Source: an uncultured Eubacteriales bacterium (GTDB lineage Bacteria > Bacillota > Clostridia > Oscillospirales > CAG-272). Taken from it: 64,000 nucleotides of DNA. The stretch spans positions 24,204 to 88,203 of the forward strand of contig CAKTAA010000001.1 of assembly GCA_934526185.1 (NCBI GenBank). Direction: 5' to 3'. Every line of letters starts with the position of its first letter. Position 1 is the stretch's first letter. This document shows, in pieces, positions 1,292 to 35,995 of this stretch. The notes beneath the pieces are model-generated. The model did not search any database, had not been told where the DNA came from, and saw only the letters and a program-made list of their open reading frames with translations. Both the position numbers and the translations under genes were made by a program.

Positions 1292-2186
1292 AAATTAGCT
1301 CCGCCTGCATGGAGGATGGCGTGAGCACTGCGCTCATGAATGCTTTTTCGGGATCCGAACATCGACGGATGTTTCAGAATATTAAAAAAGAGAGAGCTTG
1401 CATGAAAAAATACGGGAAAGGCTTGGCGGCAATCGTATCTGCTGTCCTGCGGGTTCCTTTGAGTACCTGCGCTTCAAAAGAGCTTGCCGCTAAGAGGCCG
1501 AGGTCCTTGTGTGTACGGAAACGCAGGAGCAGGGGCCGGAAGTTGACTGCGGTTGCATAATGAATGCGCTGAAAACACATCGCAGGTGATCGTGATAAGC
1601 GCAAGGAGGCGGGATATGAAATCACCTTTATCGTGCGATGAGAATGGCGGCCGGTCTTTTTCTGCGCTTTCGTATGATGCGTATGAAGCCGATCTTGGCG
1701 GGTATCTTACCTTCGTTCAGGGCGATGATACATTTGCCCGGAAGAAGGTTGGCGGGAGAATGAGACGTTTGACACAACCATTTCAGCCTTTTGTATGGCA
1801 ATCCTTCCGGCACTGTCCTGCATGCGGGGGCGTATTGGCAATCGCTTTCGCCGGTTTTGCCGTGGCTGGATTGTGCGTGCGAAAACAATAACGCCAGACG
1901 GCGCTGGTTACCGCCCGCCCGATTATCTGTTGTGAAGTCATCCATCCTGTTGGATGGATTTTTGAAAGAGGGGAATCAGATAGAGGCAAGAGGCTGGTTT
2001 AACTTTGGCAATCTCAGCGGTTCGGTGCGAAATGCGTTCACAGCCGCCTGCAGGTGCAGTCCTTTCAGATTCTATATATTTGCAGCGATGGAGAATATAG
2101 GCTCGAATATGAATGGGATCCGGAAGCTCCGAATAGATATTCGAAAATCATGGAATATTATGAAAGAATCTCGGTTAGCGTGACAA

Positions 2187-3820: not shown

Positions 3821-4627
3821 TCAGTCTTTGATGTACTTGTTGACAATTTCGTCGATTTTTCCTTCGGATTTCAATTCACTCAGCGCTTTGTTGAGCTTTT
3901 CAAGCAGCTCATCGTTTTCCTTGGAAACGCAGATGGCGTAATCCTCGTTGGTATATTCGCCGTCGAGTATTTTCAGCCCCTCGTTGGCCTTAACGTAGGA
4001 TTTGGCCGGTTCATTGTCGATGATGACAGCAGTCACTTTTCCGCTGAGCAGAGCCTGGACCGCGTCCGCGCCGGTTTTGTAGCGGATAACATTATCCTCG
4101 CCAAAGCCCCATTTTTTAGGTTCAGCGGATGAATAGATATCGCCGGTGGTGTCCTGCTGAACGCCTATTTTGATGCCGTCCTTAACACCAGTGGGCTCTT
4201 CTGTTTCTTCGTCGAAGCCGGTGTAAAAGTCCTCGAAGGACGTATACTCGCTGTTTTCGGGTACGATAACGACCTGAATGCCATTTGCGTAGGAATCTGT
4301 AAAGTCAACGCTTTCTTTGCGTTCATCCGTAACAGTCATGCCGGCCATACCCATATCGTATTTACCGGACTCCACACCGCCGACAATCGAACCGAACTCT
4401 ACGTCTTCGATCTGAAGCTCCATGCCGAGCTTCTCGGCTATGAGACCTGCGATTTCCACATCAATTCCTGCAAAGCTTCCGTCGTCTTCCTTGAATTCAT
4501 ACGGCGGAAAAGCCGCATTTGTCGCCATGACAAGCGTCTCGTCCTTTTTTTCAGAGCAGCCAGACATGACTGCCGCCGCTGTCAGCAGCATTGCTGCCGA
4601 CAGCAGCATAACTATGATTCTTTTCAT
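3821..4627 (-). CDS. Amino acid ABC transporter substrate-binding lipoprotein (family 3 SBP)
   Basis: Signal peptide with lipobox (AVMSGC). The GIDVEIA and TDERK motifs are typical of polar-amino-acid binding proteins. It is the first gene of the three-gene operon. Confidence 0.85.
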   Translation of the reverse strand: MKRIIVMLLSAAMLLTAAAVMSGCSEKKDETLVMATNAAFPPYEFKEDDGSFAGIDVEIAGLIAEKLGMELQIEDVEFGSIVGGVESGKYDMGMAGMTVTDERKESVDFTDSYANGIQVVIVPENSEYTSFEDFYTGFDEETEEPTGVKDGIKIGVQQDTTGDIYSSAEPKKWGFGEDNVIRYKTGADAVQALLSGKVTAVIIDNEPAKSYVKANEGLKILDGEYTNEDYAICVSKENDELLEKLNKALSELKSEGKIDEIVNKYIKD

Positions 4628-28965: not shown

Positions 28966-29241
28966 ATGAATAAGACACAGTTGATCGATGCAGTTGTGGA
29001 AAAAACAGGACTCAAAAAGAAGGAAGCTGATGCAGCGGTTGCGGCGGTTTTCGGTGCGATTGAGGAGACTTTGGCTGCTGGCGAAAAGGTTCAGCTTGTT
29101 GGGTTCGGTACGTTTGAAGTTAAGGAAAGAGCTGAGAGAATGGGTCGCAATCCTTCAACAGGCAAGGAGATCAAGATCCCTGCGTCCAAGCACCCGACTT
29201 TCTCTGCAGGCAAGGCCCTGAAAGAAAGCGTAAACAAATAA
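28966..29241 (+). CDS. hup: DNA-binding protein HU
   Basis: N-terminus [21 protein letters not shown] plus [21 protein letters not shown]. Confidence 0.96.
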
Positions 29242-29300
29242 GAATCCGTCCGGGGACGGTTTGTGCGCTCTCACACGGTGAGCGGCATATTCAGACAAAC

Positions 29301-29346
29301 GGAACCGCACCGCTGCAGTCAGAGGGTGCGGTTCCTGCGCTTTTTA
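29301..29346 (+). terminator. Intrinsic terminator after hup
   Basis: GGAACCGCACC / GGTGCGGTTCC 11-bp stem, then TGCGCTTTTT. Confidence 0.8.
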
Positions 29347-29640
29347 TACAAATGTTAAAAAATGAAACAGGCAACCGAATCGTATGAGAGTAGAAAAGTC
29401 AGAATTCTTGAAGTCGGCGGGCTGTTTCTACAGTGAATTCATGTTTTTCGAAGACTTTGGATTCCACTGAGCGGCTGAGTCTGTGAGATCACGACTGGAC
29501 ACCCGGCGATCCGCGGATGGGCAGCGGCATCCCTGTATAGCGGGAACTGCGGACGAAAGGGGCAGAACGCGCGGCATATTTTCGCTGCAGTCCGGAAACA
29601 TGCGGCATGCCAGTTCCCGAAAGGCGGAAAGGAGATGAAG

Positions 29641-29904
29641 ATGAGATTAGATAAATTTTTGAAGGTTTCCAGAATTATCAAGCGCCGAACCGTTGCCAAC
29701 GAGGCCTGCGACGCTTCGCACGTCAAGGTCAATGGCAGAGGCGTCAAGGCATCGTATGACGTCAAAGAGGGTGATGTTATTTCCGTGTCCTTTGGGGAAC
29801 GTACGCTGACGGTGCGGGTTCTGAATGTGCTGGAGCATGCGCAGAAAGCAGATGCTTCGTCTATGTACGAGGTGCTTTCAAGCGAAAGCGGCTCCGAAAA
29901 TTAA
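29641..29904 (+). CDS. rqcP: S4-domain RNA-binding protein (YabO/RqcP family)
   Basis: N-terminus MRLDKFLKVSRIIKRRTVA closely matches the B. subtilis YabO N-terminus as I recall it. The hup-yabO-yabP-yabQ-divIC context also fits. Confidence 0.85.
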   Translation: MRLDKFLKVSRIIKRRTVANEACDASHVKVNGRGVKASYDVKEGDVISVSFGERTLTVRVLNVLEHAQKADASSMYEVLSSESGSEN

Positions 29905-30094
29905 AAAATCAAACAGAAAAAGACGCGGGCGGGCGATGCTGTACAAATGGGCGGCTGCGTGATAGAAAACTATACACGAAGAACAAACTTGTCAGGCGGC
30001 AAAGTCATAGGAACCCTTCCTCCTGAATATATTTTAGAGAAAAGAACGCAGAAGCCGGAGTGAATCTGCTTTTTGCTGCGGAGGAGGGAATAAG

Positions 30095-30376
30095 ATGGCT
30101 GATGAAATCCGCCCGCGTCCGGATCATATACTTGTCCTGAGGAATCGAGAGGAGTTGACGGTGACCGGTGTAGAGAACGTCGACAGCTATAATGACAATA
30201 TCATTGAGGCGGTGACGGCGCTTGGCGCCATGACCGTTGAAGGCCGGGAGCTTCATATCACAAAACTTTCGCTGGAGAGCGGCGAAATGCATGTAACGGG
30301 CAACATCAGCGGTGTGCTGTATGCGATAGAGCCGGAAAAGCCGGAGGGCGGTTTTTTCCGCAGACTTTTTAAATAA
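30095..30376 (+). CDS. yabP: Sporulation protein YabP
   Basis: Pattern L.LRNREELTVTGVENVDSYNDN...LHITKLSLESGEM.V.G, with SD GGAGGAGGG. Confidence 0.88.
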   Translation: MADEIRPRPDHILVLRNREELTVTGVENVDSYNDNIIEAVTALGAMTVEGRELHITKLSLESGEMHVTGNISGVLYAIEPEKPEGGFFRRLFK

Positions 30377-30571
30377 GATAAGAATACGGCAGCGCCTGTG
30401 CATTGTGCGGAGCCGCTATAAAGGGAGCTCTCAGTGTGAGATTTCCGTTTGGGCGACTCTGTGCGGTGAATTTTAGGTGGCCCTGTTGTTTTCGGGAGGC
30501 AGGCTCCTCTTGCTGACCCTCTCCGGGCGATGCAGCAGGACGCTCTGCGGAAAGTTTGGCGCAGAAAGGAC

Positions 30572-31231
30572 ATGAAACTGACGATGGAAGCTTCGGTTAC
30601 CGGCAACGGTGTATTATTTTTCTGGGCGATACTGCTGGGGGCTGTTTGGGGCGTTGTGTATGACATTTTTCGCGTCATACGGATTGCGCGCGGAGCCTCG
30701 TGCCCGGCTGATAATTATGCGGCGGTGAAACGCCTGCGCGCTGTCCGGCTGAAACTGCCGGAGCTGAGCGGAGCAAAGCGCAGAAAAGGAAAGCCTGAAA
30801 AATCTGAAAAACCTAAGCTGCACATAACGGAAACAGCGCTTGTCTTTATCGAGGATCTTCTGTTTACCTTAGCCTGCGGGCTTAGCTTTATCATTTTTGT
30901 TTTTTCAGCCAATTCCGGAATGTTCCGCTGGTTTTTGCTTGTGGGAGCGGCAGCGGGCTTCTGTGCGTATTATTTTACTGTGGGAAAACTGGTGACGGGA
31001 TGCGCGGCTCTGCTTGTGGCGCTGCTCCGTGCTGTTCTGATTCTGATAGGTAACTATACACTGTGCCCTTTGCTGCGTTTGATGCTTTTGACAGGGGGAC
31101 TGATTTACCGCCTTGCGGTCGGCGTCTGCGGGAGGATACAAAGCCGGTATCGGATGCATATGCTCAAACGCTATACGGCAGCACAGAGCAGGCGCCTTGA
31201 AGCGGCAGCACTTCATGGCTTCCGGACGTAG
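30572..31231 (+). CDS. yabQ: Spore cortex biosynthesis protein YabQ
   Basis: Multi-TM protein with the GAVWGVVYDIFRVIRI motif, positioned right after yabP. The start is uncertain (30530, 30572 or 30584). It ends in TAG. Confidence 0.75.
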   Translation: MKLTMEASVTGNGVLFFWAILLGAVWGVVYDIFRVIRIARGASCPADNYAAVKRLRAVRLKLPELSGAKRRKGKPEKSEKPKLHITETALVFIEDLLFTLACGLSFIIFVFSANSGMFRWFLLVGAAAGFCAYYFTVGKLVTGCAALLVALLRAVLILIGNYTLCPLLRLMLLTGGLIYRLAVGVCGRIQSRYRMHMLKRYTAAQSRRLEAAALHGFRT

Positions 31232-31403
31232 TGCGGCAGTATAGAAAATTATGTACGCCGATATGTGGATTCTGTTGTTTCTGCCTGCTCCTATCCGAAA
31301 AATATTTTTACAAAAAATTCTCGCGGGAGAAATCAATTTACTATGAATTTTCCCTTTTTGCCTGAGCAACGAGAAATATACTGTATTGAAAAAGTAAGGA
31401 GGA

Positions 31404-31694
31404 ATGGCTTTGAAGCCTAAAAAGCAAACTCACTTTTTTGTCAAAGCGGCTTTTGTCGTCTTTGCAGTTTTTTGTGTTATTACCATATTCAATATGCAGC
31501 ATAAGAATAACGGGAAAATAAATGATATAGAGACATTGGCTGCTCAGATAAAGGAAACACAGGCGAGGGTTGATGAGCTGCAGGATCAGGTTGAGACGCC
31601 GTATGACAAGGATTATATTATCAAAGTGGCAAAAGAGAAGCTGAATTACAGCCTGCCGAATGAAATTATTTTTTACAATGATCTGGCAAACTGA
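31404..31694 (+). CDS. divIC: Septum formation initiator (DivIC/FtsB family)
   Basis: One N-terminal TM followed by a coiled coil (ETLAAQIKETQARVDELQDQVE) and then DYIIKVAKEKLNY. Context after yabQ fits. Confidence 0.8.
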   Translation: MALKPKKQTHFFVKAAFVVFAVFCVITIFNMQHKNNGKINDIETLAAQIKETQARVDELQDQVETPYDKDYIIKVAKEKLNYSLPNEIIFYNDLAN

Positions 31695-31969: not shown

Positions 31970-33196
31970 ATGGAAATGGAGAAATACATGAATCAGAGAA
32001 CAGCGCAGGAAAGCCGGAGCAAGCGACAGCAGAAAAAAGACGGTGTGATTTGGACCGTTTTGACAGCTATCTTGCTCCTCTTTTCCGTTTTGGGCAATGT
32101 GATCATGGGAGCGGTATTGTACAACAGGTTTTCCTCCGGAGAAGGCGAATCCTATGAGGAGCTTCAGGCGGAGCGGAACCGTCTGGCAGCCGTTTCCGAA
32201 CAATATGCTTCTCTTTTGGAGAATAATGCTGTTCTAAATGAAAAAATTGCGGATCAGTCTGAGGAGCTTGCGCGTTTGGAGGAGGAAAAGAAGGCTCTTC
32301 AGGAACAGCTTGATGAGCGTGCCCTTGATGAATTCGCTGCAGAAATTGACCGCCTGGTGCAGAATGCGCCCTGGTGGTTCGATGCGGCGGGGAATTTTGT
32401 AAAATGGGACGGAACCGATGTTCCGTCCGGCTATACACGAGCGTCGGTGTCTGTTTATTATGAGGATTTGGAAAGTGGGAGATCTTACGGCTGCGGAGAG
32501 GAGACGAGCTATTATGCCGCCAGTCTTATCAAGGCGCCGTACATATACGCATTGCTATGCGAATTTGCCGCTGCCAGAGAACGTACAGCGGAGGGCGAAG
32601 ATTTAGGCATCTACGACTGGAACCGTACGGTAACGCTGACGGATGCAATGAAAAGAAGCGGTTCCGGTACGATCAAAAGCATGCCGGCCGGTACGCAGTT
32701 TACGGTAAAGGAACTGATGCAGTATGCCATTGAAGTCAGTGACAATACGGCGTTTCATTTTCTGAAAACGACATACGGATCCGACTTTTTTTTCGAAAAG
32801 GCCAAGGAACTCGGCGTCAGCAGTGTATATGAAGGTTCATTTGATACGCTGAATGCAGAGGACGCGTGTGTTTTTCTGCGTGCTATCTATGAATTTGCAG
32901 AAGAGAACGATATAGAAGGACAAATGCTGCTTGAAAGCATGAAAAAAGCGAACTATACGATTCTCATTCCGCAGGCAGCGGAAGGTACGGAAACGGCGCA
33001 TAAATACGGATGGGATTCGAAGGCCTATCACGATATGGCGATTGTGTTTGCTAAGCGGCCTTATGTGATTTGCATCATGACAAATTTTGATTTTTCAGAG
33101 AGAAGTCAGTGGCGGGAGGGTATCAACGAATATTTGAGAGAAATTGCCGCGCATATTATGGAATATCATGAACAAACTGCCGCGGAGCGAACATAA
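31970..33196 (+). CDS. Membrane-anchored class A beta-lactamase-fold serine hydrolase
   Basis: N-terminal TM and coiled coil, then the SxxK (ASLIK), SDN (EVSDNTAF) and K(T/Y)G-like (HKYGW) motifs. Confidence 0.75.
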   Translation: MEMEKYMNQRTAQESRSKRQQKKDGVIWTVLTAILLLFSVLGNVIMGAVLYNRFSSGEGESYEELQAERNRLAAVSEQYASLLENNAVLNEKIADQSEELARLEEEKKALQEQLDERALDEFAAEIDRLVQNAPWWFDAAGNFVKWDGTDVPSGYTRASVSVYYEDLESGRSYGCGEETSYYAASLIKAPYIYALLCEFAAARERTAEGEDLGIYDWNRTVTLTDAMKRSGSGTIKSMPAGTQFTVKELMQYAIEVSDNTAFHFLKTTYGSDFFFEKAKELGVSSVYEGSFDTLNAEDACVFLRAIYEFAEENDIEGQMLLESMKKANYTILIPQAAEGTETAHKYGWDSKAYHDMAIVFAKRPYVICIMTNFDFSERSQWREGINEYLREIAAHIMEYHEQTAAERT

Positions 33197-33339: not shown

Positions 33340-34509
33340 TTATGATAAAAAAACAGCCTCCGAGGCTCCGGAAGTATAGACAACGCGGCCGCTGATAACG
33401 GTTAAACGGACTCTGGTGTCAAGCTGCAGAGGGCTTCCGTCAAAGACTGCCAGATCCGCGTCTTTACCGACTTTCAGGCTGCCAAGCCTGTGATCTACCC
33501 GACAGATTTTTGCGGCGTTAATGGTAATGGCGCGGAGGGCGGACGCCTCCTCTAAGCCTTCCTTTTTGGCGAGAGCGGCGCAAAGCGGCAGATATTGTAT
33601 GCGGGACACCGGATGATCGGTTGTCAGTGCAACAAGAACGCCGGCCCTGTCAAGAATACCGGCCGTTTTGAAATCGGAGTTGTTAACCTCGTTTTTGCTT
33701 CTGGAGGCCAGAGACGGACCGACGATTGCCGGATAGCCGCTTGAGGCGATCGCATCGGCGATCAGATGCCCTTCCGTGCAGTGATCAAGGGTAAGACCCA
33801 GATGAAATTCATTTGCTATCCGAATGGCTGTAAAAATATCGTCTGTTCGGTGTACATGTGCTTTCAGAGGAATTTTACCCTCGAACAGATCGCGGTAGCA
33901 TTCCATCGAAAAATCCGGCTGAACGCCGCCGTTTTGTTCCGCGTCAAAATATTGACGCGCGAGAAACAGCTCTTCGCGAATGAGAGAAGCAATGGCCATC
34001 CTTGTAGATGGAATATTACCGTTGACACCGTAATTCACCTTCGGATTTTCACCAAACGCTATTTTTACAGCAGCGGGTGCAAGGACAACCATATCATCAA
34101 CTCTGCGTCCGTCCGTTTTTATAAAAGCAAACTGACCGCCAATGGCGTTAGCGCTCCCGGGCCCTGCCATGACGCCGGTGATTCCCTGAGCTATGGCATT
34201 GTGAAAAGCGCTGTCCATGGGATTGATGGCGTCGACAGCGCGCAGACAGGGGGTGACAGGATTGGTTCCCTCATTGCAGTCATCCCCTTGCCGCCCTGCT
34301 TTTTCCTCTGAAATACCGATGTGACTGTGGGCGTCAATCAAGCCCGGATAAATGTGAAGCCCGGAGGCGTTCAGAAGGCGCGTACCTTCGGGCGGCGAAA
34401 TATGCTCCGATATTTTTACGATTTTATCATCCCGTATCAGCAGGTCAGCGCGAATGGTCCCCTGATTTTCCTCCATGGTGTGAAGCGTTCCGTTTTGAAT
34501 GCAGATCAT
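33340..34509 (-). CDS. Metal-dependent amidohydrolase superfamily protein
   Basis: The PGLIDAHSHIG metal-binding HxH motif, a later HCTEGH and a C-terminal GSLKVGKDADL segment are typical of COG1228-type amidohydrolases. SD is GGAGG. Confidence 0.8.
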   Translation of the reverse strand: MICIQNGTLHTMEENQGTIRADLLIRDDKIVKISEHISPPEGTRLLNASGLHIYPGLIDAHSHIGISEEKAGRQGDDCNEGTNPVTPCLRAVDAINPMDSAFHNAIAQGITGVMAGPGSANAIGGQFAFIKTDGRRVDDMVVLAPAAVKIAFGENPKVNYGVNGNIPSTRMAIASLIREELFLARQYFDAEQNGGVQPDFSMECYRDLFEGKIPLKAHVHRTDDIFTAIRIANEFHLGLTLDHCTEGHLIADAIASSGYPAIVGPSLASRSKNEVNNSDFKTAGILDRAGVLVALTTDHPVSRIQYLPLCAALAKKEGLEEASALRAITINAAKICRVDHRLGSLKVGKDADLAVFDGSPLQLDTRVRLTVISGRVVYTSGASEAVFLS

Positions 34510-34624
34510 ACAAACCTCCGAAAAAATTTATTGCCGTGTATATTTTTGCCAAAAGAAAGCAAAACTATCCATGTCAGCATAGGATACTCAACTGGAAAAA
34601 AGGATTTTTAAGGAGGATTCTACC

Positions 34625-34786
34625 GTGAACAATCAGAATAATCAGAACCAAAACAACCAAAACAACCAAAACAACCAGAATCAGAACAATCAGAATCAGA
34701 ACAATCAGAACAACCGGAACAACCAAAACAATCAGAATCAGAAGAATCGTCAAAACAATAATCAGAACCAGCAGAACAGCCGCTGA
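34625..34786 (+). CDS. 53-aa Asn/Gln-only small protein (not in the ORF track)
   Basis: AAGGAGG at 34610-34616, an 8-nt spacer, GTG 34625 and TGA 34784-34786, then a strong terminator. 47 of 53 residues are N or Q. Synonymous codons are mixed (AAC/AAT, CAA/CAG). Confidence 0.6.
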   Translation: MNNQNNQNQNNQNNQNNQNQNNQNQNNQNNRNNQNNQNQKNRQNNNQNQQNSR

Positions 34787-34807
34787 GCGGCATGTGAAGT
34801 GTACTGC

Positions 34808-34860
34808 GGAACAGGCCGTCCTCTGCACAACAGTGCAAGGGACGGCCTGTTCCTTTTGTT
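34808..34860 (+). terminator. Intrinsic terminator of the N/Q ORF
   Basis: GGAACAGGCCGTCC / GGACGGCCTGTTCC 14-bp stem with an inner TGCAC/GTGCA extension, then TTTTGTT. Confidence 0.85.
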
Positions 34861-35008: not shown

Positions 35009-35995
35009 TTACCGGCTGCTGTCGGCATACACTCTGCGGATCACGTCGTCAATTCCGGTTTCCTCAAAGCTGATGTCGCGAATCTGTTCGGTTTGCGATA
35101 TACGGGAGATGATCTCACCTGCGCCGGTATCCTTTTTACAATATTGCAGCCAGACACGATTTCCCTCTCTTCGGACAATTCTTGCGCACGGCACCGAAAA
35201 ATCCTTCGACGGCTCGTCAAACAGATCTGCAACGATTGTCTTTTCAGGCGCCAGTCGATCCATAAGCTCTGAAAGCGAACCGTCCTCCACAATTATCCCT
35301 TTGTTTATGATAATAATGCGGTGACATAATTGTTCAATGTCGTCCAAATCATGCGTGGTCAGTATGATTGTTGTTTTATATTGTTCGTTGATATCCCTGA
35401 TGAATTTTCTGACAGCATGCTTGACCTCGACATCAAGACCTATTGTAGGTTCGTCAAGGAATACAAGCGCCGGCGAATGCAGCATGGAAGCGGCCAGATC
35501 ACCTTTCATGCGCTGACCGAGAGATAGCTGTCTGACCGGTGTATCAACGATGCTTCCAATGCCCAGAATATCATCAAGAACAGATAGATTTTTACGATAT
35601 GTATCGTCCGGAATCCGGTAGATTCTGCGCAGAAGCTCAAAGGATTCGCCAAGCCGCAGATCCCAGTAAAGCTGTGAGCGCTGACCGAAAACAACGCCGA
35701 TATTTTGCACAACCTTCTTACGGTTTTCGTACGGCGAAAGTCCTCTTACGAGCACGGTGCCTGAGGTAGGCTGCAGGATGCCGCTCATCATTTTGATGGT
35801 CGTGCTTTTTCCGGCGCCGTTCGGCCCGATATAGCCGACGATCTCGCCCTCGGAAATATCAAAGCTGATATGATCCACCGCCCGAAACTTTTCCCTGTTG
35901 ATTTTTACAAGATTTTTCAGAGCGCCCCGAAAGCCGCTCTCCTTTTTATTTACCTGAAAATCCTTTACGAGGTCTTTTACCTCAACAACAGCCAT
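35009..35995 (-). CDS. ABC-2 type transporter ATP-binding protein
   Basis: Walker A GPNGAGKST, signature LSLGQRMK, Walker B LVFLDEPTIGLD, plus a C-terminal extension. Start re-picked to ATG 35995 (MAVVEVKDL). Confidence 0.9.
   Translation of the reverse strand: MAVVEVKDLVKDFQVNKKESGFRGALKNLVKINREKFRAVDHISFDISEGEIVGYIGPNGAGKSTTIKMMSGILQPTSGTVLVRGLSPYENRKKVVQNIGVVFGQRSQLYWDLRLGESFELLRRIYRIPDDTYRKNLSVLDDILGIGSIVDTPVRQLSLGQRMKGDLAASMLHSPALVFLDEPTIGLDVEVKHAVRKFIRDINEQYKTTIILTTHDLDDIEQLCHRIIIINKGIIVEDGSLSELMDRLAPEKTIVADLFDEPSKDFSVPCARIVRREGNRVWLQYCKKDTGAGEIISRISQTEQIRDISFEETGIDDVIRRVYADSSR

Follow-up and report, generated by a model that had tools for sequence, protein, structure and literature searches.

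A 64,000-nucleotide (nt) stretch of DNA from an uncultured Eubacteriales bacterium (contig CAKTAA010000001.1; hereafter the window, to which all unprefixed coordinates refer) carries a very short gene whose predicted product consists almost entirely of asparagine and glutamine. In this report, we focus on this N/Q gene, its relatives in other Clostridia and the forespore-type promoter from which they appear to be transcribed. The open reading frame (ORF) occupies 34625..34786 on the + strand and runs from a GTG start codon (34625-34627) through 53 sense codons to a TGA stop (34784-34786), encoding MNNQNNQNQNNQNNQNNQNQNNQNQNNQNNRNNQNNQNQKNRQNNNQNQQNSR. It is preceded by a Shine-Dalgarno (SD) sequence, AAGGAGG at 34610..34616 (+), with an 8-nt spacer to the start codon, and followed by a strong, unidirectional intrinsic terminator at 34808..34857 (+)—a 46-nt hairpin (34808-34853) with an outer stem of 15 pairs (14 Watson-Crick and one G-U) and a 5-bp inner stem, then TTTT at 34854-34857—with a folding energy of about -40 kcal/mol. 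All these signals and the translation agree with the initial annotation of this DNA, and a recount confirms that 47 of the 53 residues are N (30) or Q (17). Both synonymous codons are used for each amino acid (18 AAC and 12 AAT, 12 CAG and 5 CAA) and Tandem Repeats Finder detects only imperfect arrays with 67-85% matches, so the ORF is not a clean microsatellite, as had been claimed from its irregular codon mix. The peptide has a calculated mass of 6.4 kDa, an isoelectric point (pI) of ~12, a net charge of +4, a grand average of hydropathy (GRAVY) of -3.4 and 2.1 nitrogen atoms per residue. Its mass comes to 6434 Da with Met and 6303 Da without it.

The N/Q gene has a divergent neighbor at 33340..34509 on the - strand, which encodes an amidohydrolase-superfamily enzyme of 389 aa (Pfam Amidohydro_1/3) and has its own SD, GGAGG (the reverse complement of 34515-34519). 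The two start codons are separated by 115 nt. On the other side, genes for an ATP-binding cassette (ABC) ATPase, ending at 35009, and two ABC-2 permeases converge on the N/Q gene. This layout is as first described, but the view that the N/Q unit stands alone has to be abandoned: in the window lineage, it has a palindromic, apparently bidirectional promoter in common with the amidohydrolase gene, with which it forms a conserved pair. A link to the convergent exporter was considered and rejected because the downstream neighbors differ in every lineage, the far flank of the N/Q gene encoding an ABC-2 exporter, a nitroreductase, a DsbH-like thioredoxin, a surface-layer homology (SLH) protein, a dCTP deaminase or others. 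YabP and YabQ, already pointed out in the initial annotation, and DivIC are encoded within the window, which identifies its host as a spore former.

The N/Q gene of the window is a member of a family. We collected 80 loci encoding relatives of the amidohydrolase and screened them for N/Q ORFs, and we searched one genome per prokaryotic species with a degenerate DNA pattern for NNQNNQNNQ, which returned at least 120 loci. Of the first 18 loci (L001-L018, with enzyme identity falling from 84% to 57%), 16 have a small N/Q ORF divergent from the amidohydrolase gene, as has L054. In total, ~40 small N/Q ORFs of 31-114 aa were found in genomes of Clostridia, mostly Oscillospirales metagenome-assembled genomes (MAGs). 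Among the pattern matches listed, ~30 are small ORFs (34-70 aa), all of them in Clostridia—MAGs or isolates assigned to Acutalibacteraceae, Oscillospiraceae, Ruminococcaceae, Faecousia, "Eubacteriales" and, once, Acetatifactor—while the listed matches in Proteobacteria, Bacteroidota, Actinomycetota and other phyla lie inside long proteins. About 10 of these ~30 ORFs are divergent from an amidohydrolase gene and ~20 are in other contexts; counting all searches, the pairing was found in 24 loci, and about half of the family members do not adjoin the enzyme. For the analyses below, members were pooled into sets of 42 (composition and terminators) or 45 candidate ORFs (SD and promoter scans). Of the 45 candidates, 42 have an SD of 4 nt or more ahead of the start codon, and a hairpin with a T-run lies within 110 nt of the stop codon in 33 of the 42 members. 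In many genomes, moreover, the ORF is found again at the orthologous position, together with its SD, promoter motif and terminator. The ORF at 34625-34786 is thus very probably a real protein-coding gene rather than a chance ORF, and the N/Q peptides, as judged from these genomic comparisons, constitute a widespread and previously unannotated family in spore-forming Clostridia, mainly Oscillospirales.

The composition of these peptides bears the mark of selection on the protein. Pooled over the 42 members, N accounts for 54% of residues, Q for 26%, K for 6%, R for 5%, S for 3%, and E and D for 2% each. If the remaining residues were the outcome of random one-nucleotide changes of AAY and CAR codons, R, K, S, E and D would make up 46% of the 410 non-N/Q residues, versus 89% observed, and residues that should be common are nearly missing: His was found once against 68 expected, Thr once against 35, Ile never against 35, Leu once against 17 and stops never against 17. 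In the family as a whole, there is a single in-frame CAY codon, compared with 530 CAR and 1107 AAY. The net charge lies between +1 and +6 in 42/42 members, and 28 of them end in R or K. In a strain whose amidohydrolase is 96% identical to that of the window (L201), the promoter block is identical, the start codon is ATG instead of GTG, and the N/Q ORF differs by one in-frame 9-nt indel together with 7 synonymous and 5 nonsynonymous changes. The proportions of changed synonymous (pS) and nonsynonymous (pN) sites are 0.385 and 0.039, a ratio of 0.10 (0.06 in the neighboring enzyme gene), and the excess of synonymous changes is significant (binomial p=2e-4). The residue bias, the avoidance of CAY and the low pN/pS argue that the N/Q composition is maintained by selection at the amino acid level, in agreement with the initial annotation, whose proposed check—synonymous substitutions and indels in multiples of three—gave this result in the comparison with L201 and, as described next, no broken frame in a larger set of alleles. 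Phe was found 13 times against 0 expected, Phe and Tyr not being one-step neighbors of all N/Q codons, and the two residues cluster at positions 3-5 or in the last three residues (MDF... in L004, MEF...QFNR in L006, ...QYNR in L009, MSF... in L202). Together with the R/K ends, this clustering suggests conserved terminal recognition features.

Length is highly variable between strains. When alleles were taken, lineage by lineage, from contigs encoding exactly the same amidohydrolase protein, complete N/Q ORFs measured 72, 90, 114 and 114 aa in lineage P0009, 40, 43 and 55 aa in P0085, 31 and 46 aa in P0041, 44 and 53 aa in P0017, and an invariant 48 aa in P0023. Across 26 complete alleles from six lineages (including the window and L201), which span 31-114 aa, the N and C termini are conserved and no reading frame is shifted or cut short by a stop. 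Another eleven contigs end within the repeat and are in frame as far as sequenced; contigs ending there include L204-L206, L209-L211, L244, L245, L250 and L251. The N/Q region therefore behaves as a coding variable-number tandem repeat (VNTR), and since this repeat breaks short-read assemblies, the apparent frequency of the family is depressed.

A further finding concerns the promoter. Upstream of the N/Q gene, at 34538..34567 (+), lies a -35 element GTATA (34538-34542) separated by 18 nt from a -10 element AAAACTA (34561-34567), which the initial annotation had described as loosely resembling forespore sigma-F/G promoters. The strict motif G[ACT]AT[AG]-N17/18-[CAG]A[ATC]A[ACT]TA occurs twice in the window when both strands are scanned (2.4 ± 1.5 times in shuffled windows), and the chance of a strict match within the ~80-nt slot upstream of the N/Q gene is ~0.0015. 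The other match, at 2131-2160 (+), is probably a chance one, as it has no convincing downstream gene and overlaps an antisense ABC ATPase gene. Within the family, the strict motif is found at most 110 nt upstream of 28 of the 45 N/Q ORFs, versus a background of 0.008 per 100 nt, and most of the others are one mismatch away from it (e.g., CAAGCTA or TAAACTA). In an anchored alignment of orthologous loci, both half-sites are conserved and the spacer is not. The consensus sequences in Bacillus subtilis are reportedly GHATR-N17/18-CATXHTA for sigma-G and GCATR-N15-GGHRARHTX for sigma-F (Helmann and Moran; Wang et al. 2006), to which the N/Q motif would correspond. The same promoter type precedes the genes for alpha/beta-type small acid-soluble proteins of spores (SASPs) in L013, L113 and L124 (GCATA...GGTAAATTA and GTAT(T/G)...GCAAACTTATA). 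In Clostridioides difficile, the SigF/SigG-dependent promoters of two SASP genes with mapped transcription start sites look alike as well, that of CD1290 having an AAAACTA-type -10 (...GTAAAAACTA) and that of CD3220.1 reading GTATA...GACAAAAATA (CAAAAATA) (PMC7438776 supplement; PMC3789822). Because SigF and SigG motifs overlap in clostridia (PMC7438776; PMC3789822), we name the element forespore-type and make no choice between the two sigma factors. The resemblance first noted is therefore real and conserved at orthologous loci, and it is likely that the N/Q gene is expressed in the forespore.

At loci where the N/Q gene adjoins the amidohydrolase gene, this element has a further property, namely that its -35 half-site is the reverse complement of its -10 half-site (e.g., GGAATAGTTTTTG...CAAAAACTATTCC in L014 and GAATAGTTTTCC...GGGAAACTATAC in L008). 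In the window, 34538-34570 is an imperfect palindrome whose half-sites can each act as -35 or as -10, depending on the direction of reading, the bottom-strand sequence GGATA-N18-AAAAATA at 34541..34570 (-) being the putative amidohydrolase promoter, 31 nt before its ATG. The bottom-strand motif is present in 15 of 24 amidohydrolase-adjacent loci versus 1 of 21 non-adjacent loci (Fisher p=4.6e-5), and it is found upstream of the enzyme in 9 of 58 loci that have the amidohydrolase gene and no N/Q gene. The palindrome therefore probably represents overlapping divergent forespore-type promoters specific to loci with a divergent amidohydrolase. Should its half-sites indeed act as -35 and -10 both ways in the window lineage, the amidohydrolase would be co-expressed with the N/Q gene. 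Half-sites that double as -35 or -10 according to direction would be an unusual architecture for an alternative-sigma promoter and would provide a compact bidirectional element for forespore-specific expression; full-text literature searches returned no description of such a promoter or of such an N/Q family.

There are independent hints, from motif and gene context, that the partner enzyme is tied to the forespore. In L013, an alpha/beta-type SASP gene (4455-4604, -) lies directly beyond the amidohydrolase gene, which would thus be flanked by two genes for small spore proteins. In many Lachnospiraceae loci (among L016-L080; e.g., L019 939-4176), the amidohydrolase homolog begins 2 nt past an M23-peptidase gene that itself follows a gene with a SpoIID domain, a context that looks like an engulfment or forespore operon. 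Clostridial spoIID and "SpoIIQ, CD0125 family" genes have been described (PMC3533761), and the layout suggests that the Lachnospiraceae pair corresponds to them. Many of the sequences upstream of these Lachnospiraceae homologs share a C terminus, ...KDGEPVNPMSKL*. In C. difficile, CD2841 is a SigF/SigG-dependent, spore-associated "putative amidohydrolase" (PMC7438776 supplement; PMC3789822). Exact-pattern scans of genome contigs gave no match to its locus, which was retrieved from a C. difficile-like metagenome contig (L226 3588-5341). Its promoter, GAATAGTATTTACTTCTTGGCAAACAATA, closely resembles the bottom-strand promoters of the N/Q loci. We considered CD2841 (534 aa) as an ortholog of the window enzyme and rejected it, the two sharing 29% identity over 109 C-terminal residues only, so it appears that two different amidohydrolase-superfamily enzymes belong to forespore programs.

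Taken with the architecture of the gene, these observations lead us to propose, on balance, that the N/Q protein is a new SASP-like forespore protein, most plausibly an amino acid and nitrogen reserve or a core protectant; the sequences show the gene signals, the conservation of the family and of the promoter motif, and selection at the amino acid level, while forespore expression, localization in the spore and a reserve function are what we infer here. SASPs are small, sigma-G-dependent and monocistronic (PMC3533761; PMC8452069), and the window gene, likewise, encodes fewer than 100 aa (a few alleles reach 114 aa) and is monocistronic, with a strong ribosome-binding site (RBS) and its own terminator. 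In our model, the N/Q gene would be transcribed only in the forespore, by RNA polymerase carrying sigma-F or sigma-G, from a site ~50 nt upstream of the start codon, and its product—a peptide of ~6 kDa with ~80-90% Asn+Gln, strongly polar, mildly basic, and predicted from its composition to be intrinsically disordered—would build up in the spore core in the manner of a SASP. Its pI of ~12 and GRAVY of -3.4 predict that it is acid soluble. It would then stock amino acids and amide nitrogen until its degradation at germination and, being hydrophilic, possibly also protect the dehydrated core, although the assignment of a reserve or protectant function is tentative.

The closest parallel is with gamma-type SASP (SspE) of Bacillales, which is regarded as an amino acid reservoir and of which no clostridial example has been found (PMC3533761; PMC8452069). 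Like SspE, the N/Q peptides are small, of low complexity and rich in Gln/Asn, they are encoded by monocistronic genes with a strong RBS, a terminator and a putative sigma-G-type forespore promoter, their length and repeat number vary greatly between species, and an amino acid reserve is the proposed role. Unlike SspE, they reach ~80-90% N/Q, occur in Clostridia and in many genomes appear to have a promoter in common with an amidohydrolase gene. SspE family hidden Markov models (HMMs; PF04259/TIGR01442) do not match the window peptide or three other members, even at E<=1. The protease GPR cleaves gamma-type SASP at the motif E-F/I-A/G-S-E, and no such site is found in the window peptide, which is devoid of E, F, I, A and G, residues that are rare family-wide. 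We therefore regard the N/Q peptides as a new SASP-like family and not as SspE homologs. Of the hypotheses offered in the initial annotation, the analogy with gamma-type SASP fits best. A protein of 83 aa in a Sporosarcina MAG (L181 6596-6844, -) combines an N-terminal (NQR)/(NNQ) tract with a EFGSETDVQHVKQQNQ motif and scores 27.3 bits against TIGR01442, whose cut-off is 30.65; it is probably a divergent gamma-type SASP with N/Q repeats and shows that (NNQ)n tracts occur in SspE-like proteins.

Alpha/beta-type and minor SASPs (SspA-D, SspF/Ssp4, CD1290, CD3220.1) resemble the N/Q peptides in size (<100 aa), promoter type and gene architecture. The alpha/beta-type proteins have a conserved helix-turn-helix-like DNA-binding fold and sequence, whereas the N/Q peptide has no such motif; Pfam gives no match of the window peptide to PF00269, and tblastn with an SspA sequence picks out genes in L013, L113 and L124 that are distinct from the N/Q ORFs. 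Within a few kilobases of the alpha/beta-type SASP genes of L113 and L124 (Clostridium spp.) are genes for proteins of 99-125 aa that combine a structured N-terminal part, weakly matching DUF3231, with an N/Q tail at the C terminus; these proteins may represent another class of N/Q-tailed spore protein. The broader interest of the family is that clostridia are held to lack gamma-type SASP (PMC3533761, PMC8452069). The N/Q family, which may fill this role in gut Clostridia, offers a concrete candidate, open to testing, for this missing protein, whether reserve or protective, and it concerns Oscillospirales-type spore formers, which are dominant in the gut.

Several points weigh against this reading. 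The family was partly gathered by a composition pattern, and low complexity prevents homology from being told from convergence for the members that are not syntenic. Forespore expression of the family rests on a promoter motif, in which sigma-F and sigma-G cannot be distinguished here, and a dimeric regulator might instead use the palindrome as its operator. Since CD2841 is not an ortholog, no experimental datum transfers from C. difficile, whose data only calibrate the promoter motif. The missing GPR site is another such point, and the avoidance of His, a nitrogen-rich residue, argues against pure nitrogen storage. As to coding potential, length units of 9, 18 or 45 nt keep the frame automatically, which makes in-frame indels alone weak evidence. 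Finally, lineage P0060 (L212-L221, about 1000-1200) has lost the N/Q ORF, which is thus dispensable there, while the amidohydrolase gene still has the palindromic promoter AATATTTTTGACAG...GTAAACTATCC upstream; the N/Q gene can vanish while the enzyme promoter stays.

Among the alternatives, the one that survives best accepts that the peptide is made in the forespore and gives it a physical role: a prion-like polypeptide, forming a gel or amyloid, would help to vitrify or organize the dehydrated core or set heterogeneity in dormancy and germination, with R and K tuning its solubility. The composition is extreme enough for this (N:Q ~2:1, hydrophobic residues absent or few), the family-wide 80% N+Q agreeing with the Q/N-rich, low-complexity character of prion-like domains, and the large differences in allele length between strains could tune material properties. 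There is also a precedent of sorts in C. difficile, where GerG (CD0311), a protein associated with spores, contains Asn-rich, low-complexity repeats that vary in number, gel in vitro and score as prion-like (PMC5241399). GerG is larger, the Asn-rich repeats forming only its central region, its predicted prion-like domain covering residues 43-270 and ~30% of its residues being of one unusual composition (PMC5241399). Unlike the N/Q family, to which it has no sequence relationship, it is restricted to C. difficile, and its effect is on how Csp germination regulators, products of the mother cell, are incorporated. Every N/Q peptide carries a net charge of at least +1, up to +6, and lacks a core rich in aromatic residues. 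In general, charged residues work against the formation of prions. A gel is also compatible with a reserve, and sequence does not separate the two roles. We consider a primarily physical role unlikely, but a polypeptide of 80-90% N/Q that would be kept soluble only by sparse R and K might in any event offer a natural system for polar low-complexity sequences in a near-anhydrous cell.

Starting instead from the neighboring gene, one may suppose that peptide and amidohydrolase are substrate and enzyme, deamidation or trimming (e.g., of the C-terminal Arg/Lys) releasing ammonia and amino acids at germination. The divergent pairing is kept down to ~57% enzyme identity while the other flank varies, the two genes have the palindromic promoter in common, two thirds of the peptides (28/42) end in R/K, and the enzyme shows weak similarity to amidohydrolase-superfamily prolidases and Xaa-Pro dipeptidase. 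Yet partnership is far from obligatory on either side, as ~20 of the ~30 pattern-derived members among the matches listed have no amidohydrolase in the examined locus, and the enzyme is common without the peptide, both in Lachnospiraceae and in P0060 after loss of the ORF. Its closest solved structure, 3ooq, has no assigned function, and if both were co-expressed in one compartment, the enzyme would have to be kept inactive until germination. Such a substrate-enzyme pair, which the initial annotation had put forward, therefore strikes us as distinctly doubtful. We hold as more speculative still its extension to a two-gene forespore module, in which a palindromic sigma-F/G promoter would drive both a poly-(Asn/Gln) store of a length that repeat slippage can tune and an amidohydrolase that mobilizes this store at germination by deamidation or carboxy-terminal trimming. 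Cyanophycin is a nitrogen-dense store made nonribosomally from Asp and Arg and mobilized by a dedicated hydrolase, cyanophycinase. The functional analogy lies in a nitrogen-dense polymer beside a hydrolase gene, the N/Q polymer differing in being ribosomal and genetically encoded, and in that its link to the hydrolase is putative. If true, the module would be a genetically encoded counterpart of cyanophycin/cyanophycinase and the missing clostridial equivalent of gamma-type SASP plus GPR.

The remaining alternatives deny that the N/Q peptide itself matters, and fare much worse than the SASP-like reading. The region could be a neutral A/C-rich VNTR or specify a small RNA, such as a protein sponge with repeated CAGAAY, the ORF being incidental. 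This would account for the VNTR-like length polymorphism and for the assemblies that often break inside the repeat, and promoter and terminator would suit a small RNA equally well. It is nevertheless very improbable, because the SD and the start codon are conserved, substitutions are concentrated at third positions (pN/pS 0.10), replacements are hydrophilic or charged only, and in-frame CAY is virtually absent despite abundant CAR and AAY, unlike what an RNA motif predicts; moreover, Rfam gives only sub-threshold chance matches in the N/Q region.

A leader peptide, in which ribosome stalling for want of charged Asn or Gln tRNA would decide whether transcription passes the terminator into a downstream gene, shares with the N/Q locus a short ORF rich in one or two codon types and an intrinsic terminator close behind, as in amino-acid-operon leaders such as Thr_leader (RF00506), to which the region has a weak Rfam resemblance (20.5 bits versus a gathering threshold of 55, E=1.3). 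Known leaders are far shorter than 31-114 codons with ~80% "sensor" codons, no alternative antiterminator pairing is evident in folding, and a forespore promoter is unexpected for control of amino acid biosynthesis. There is also no conserved gene to regulate, since the gene that follows runs convergently in the window and in 23 of the 35 loci that could be evaluated, and the 12 co-oriented ones are functionally unrelated (e.g., nitroreductase and DsbH-like thioredoxin). The translational sensor of Asn/Gln-tRNA envisaged in the initial annotation can accordingly be dropped as extremely improbable.

That the true gene is instead the antisense L/I/V ORF of 84 aa at 34574..34828 (-), encoding a small membrane or type-I-toxin-like peptide of which the N/Q frame would be the shadow, has next to no chance of being correct: its frame is always open and a metagenome gene caller preferred it in L201, but openness is automatic because the reverse complements of AAY and CAR are RTT and YTG, it has no SD, its start codon (34828) is buried in the ~ -40 kcal/mol terminator hairpin, nothing like the promoter and RBS of a type I toxin is found, promoter, SD and terminator T-run all face the + strand, and selection on a hydrophobic peptide would not explain the avoidance of sense His (antisense Val/Met). 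The shadow status assigned to it initially is thus well founded.

This antisense frame helps to explain how the family has escaped annotation, along with short length, extreme low complexity and the bias filters of HMMER. In L201, the gene caller chose a 95-aa antisense shadow (527-814) in place of the N/Q gene and made the amidohydrolase (753-2003) 27 codons too long, at 416 aa, overlapping the antisense ORF. In other lineages, the N/Q ORF is called but carries no annotation. No model in Pfam (2025) or NCBIfam (2026) matches the window peptide or the other members tested, and none of ten family peptides is present, by exact look-up, in a collection of 15 billion proteins. A HMMER-based protein search with the peptide yielded 1813 word-sharing candidates, none with E<=1e-3, which we attribute to the correction for compositional bias.

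Elsewhere in the window, 28966-31694 holds a canonical Firmicutes cluster composed of hbs (HU), a gene with an S4 domain (yabO-like), yabP, yabQ and divIC, which is followed at 31970-33196 by a gene for a membrane-anchored protein with a class-A beta-lactamase fold.

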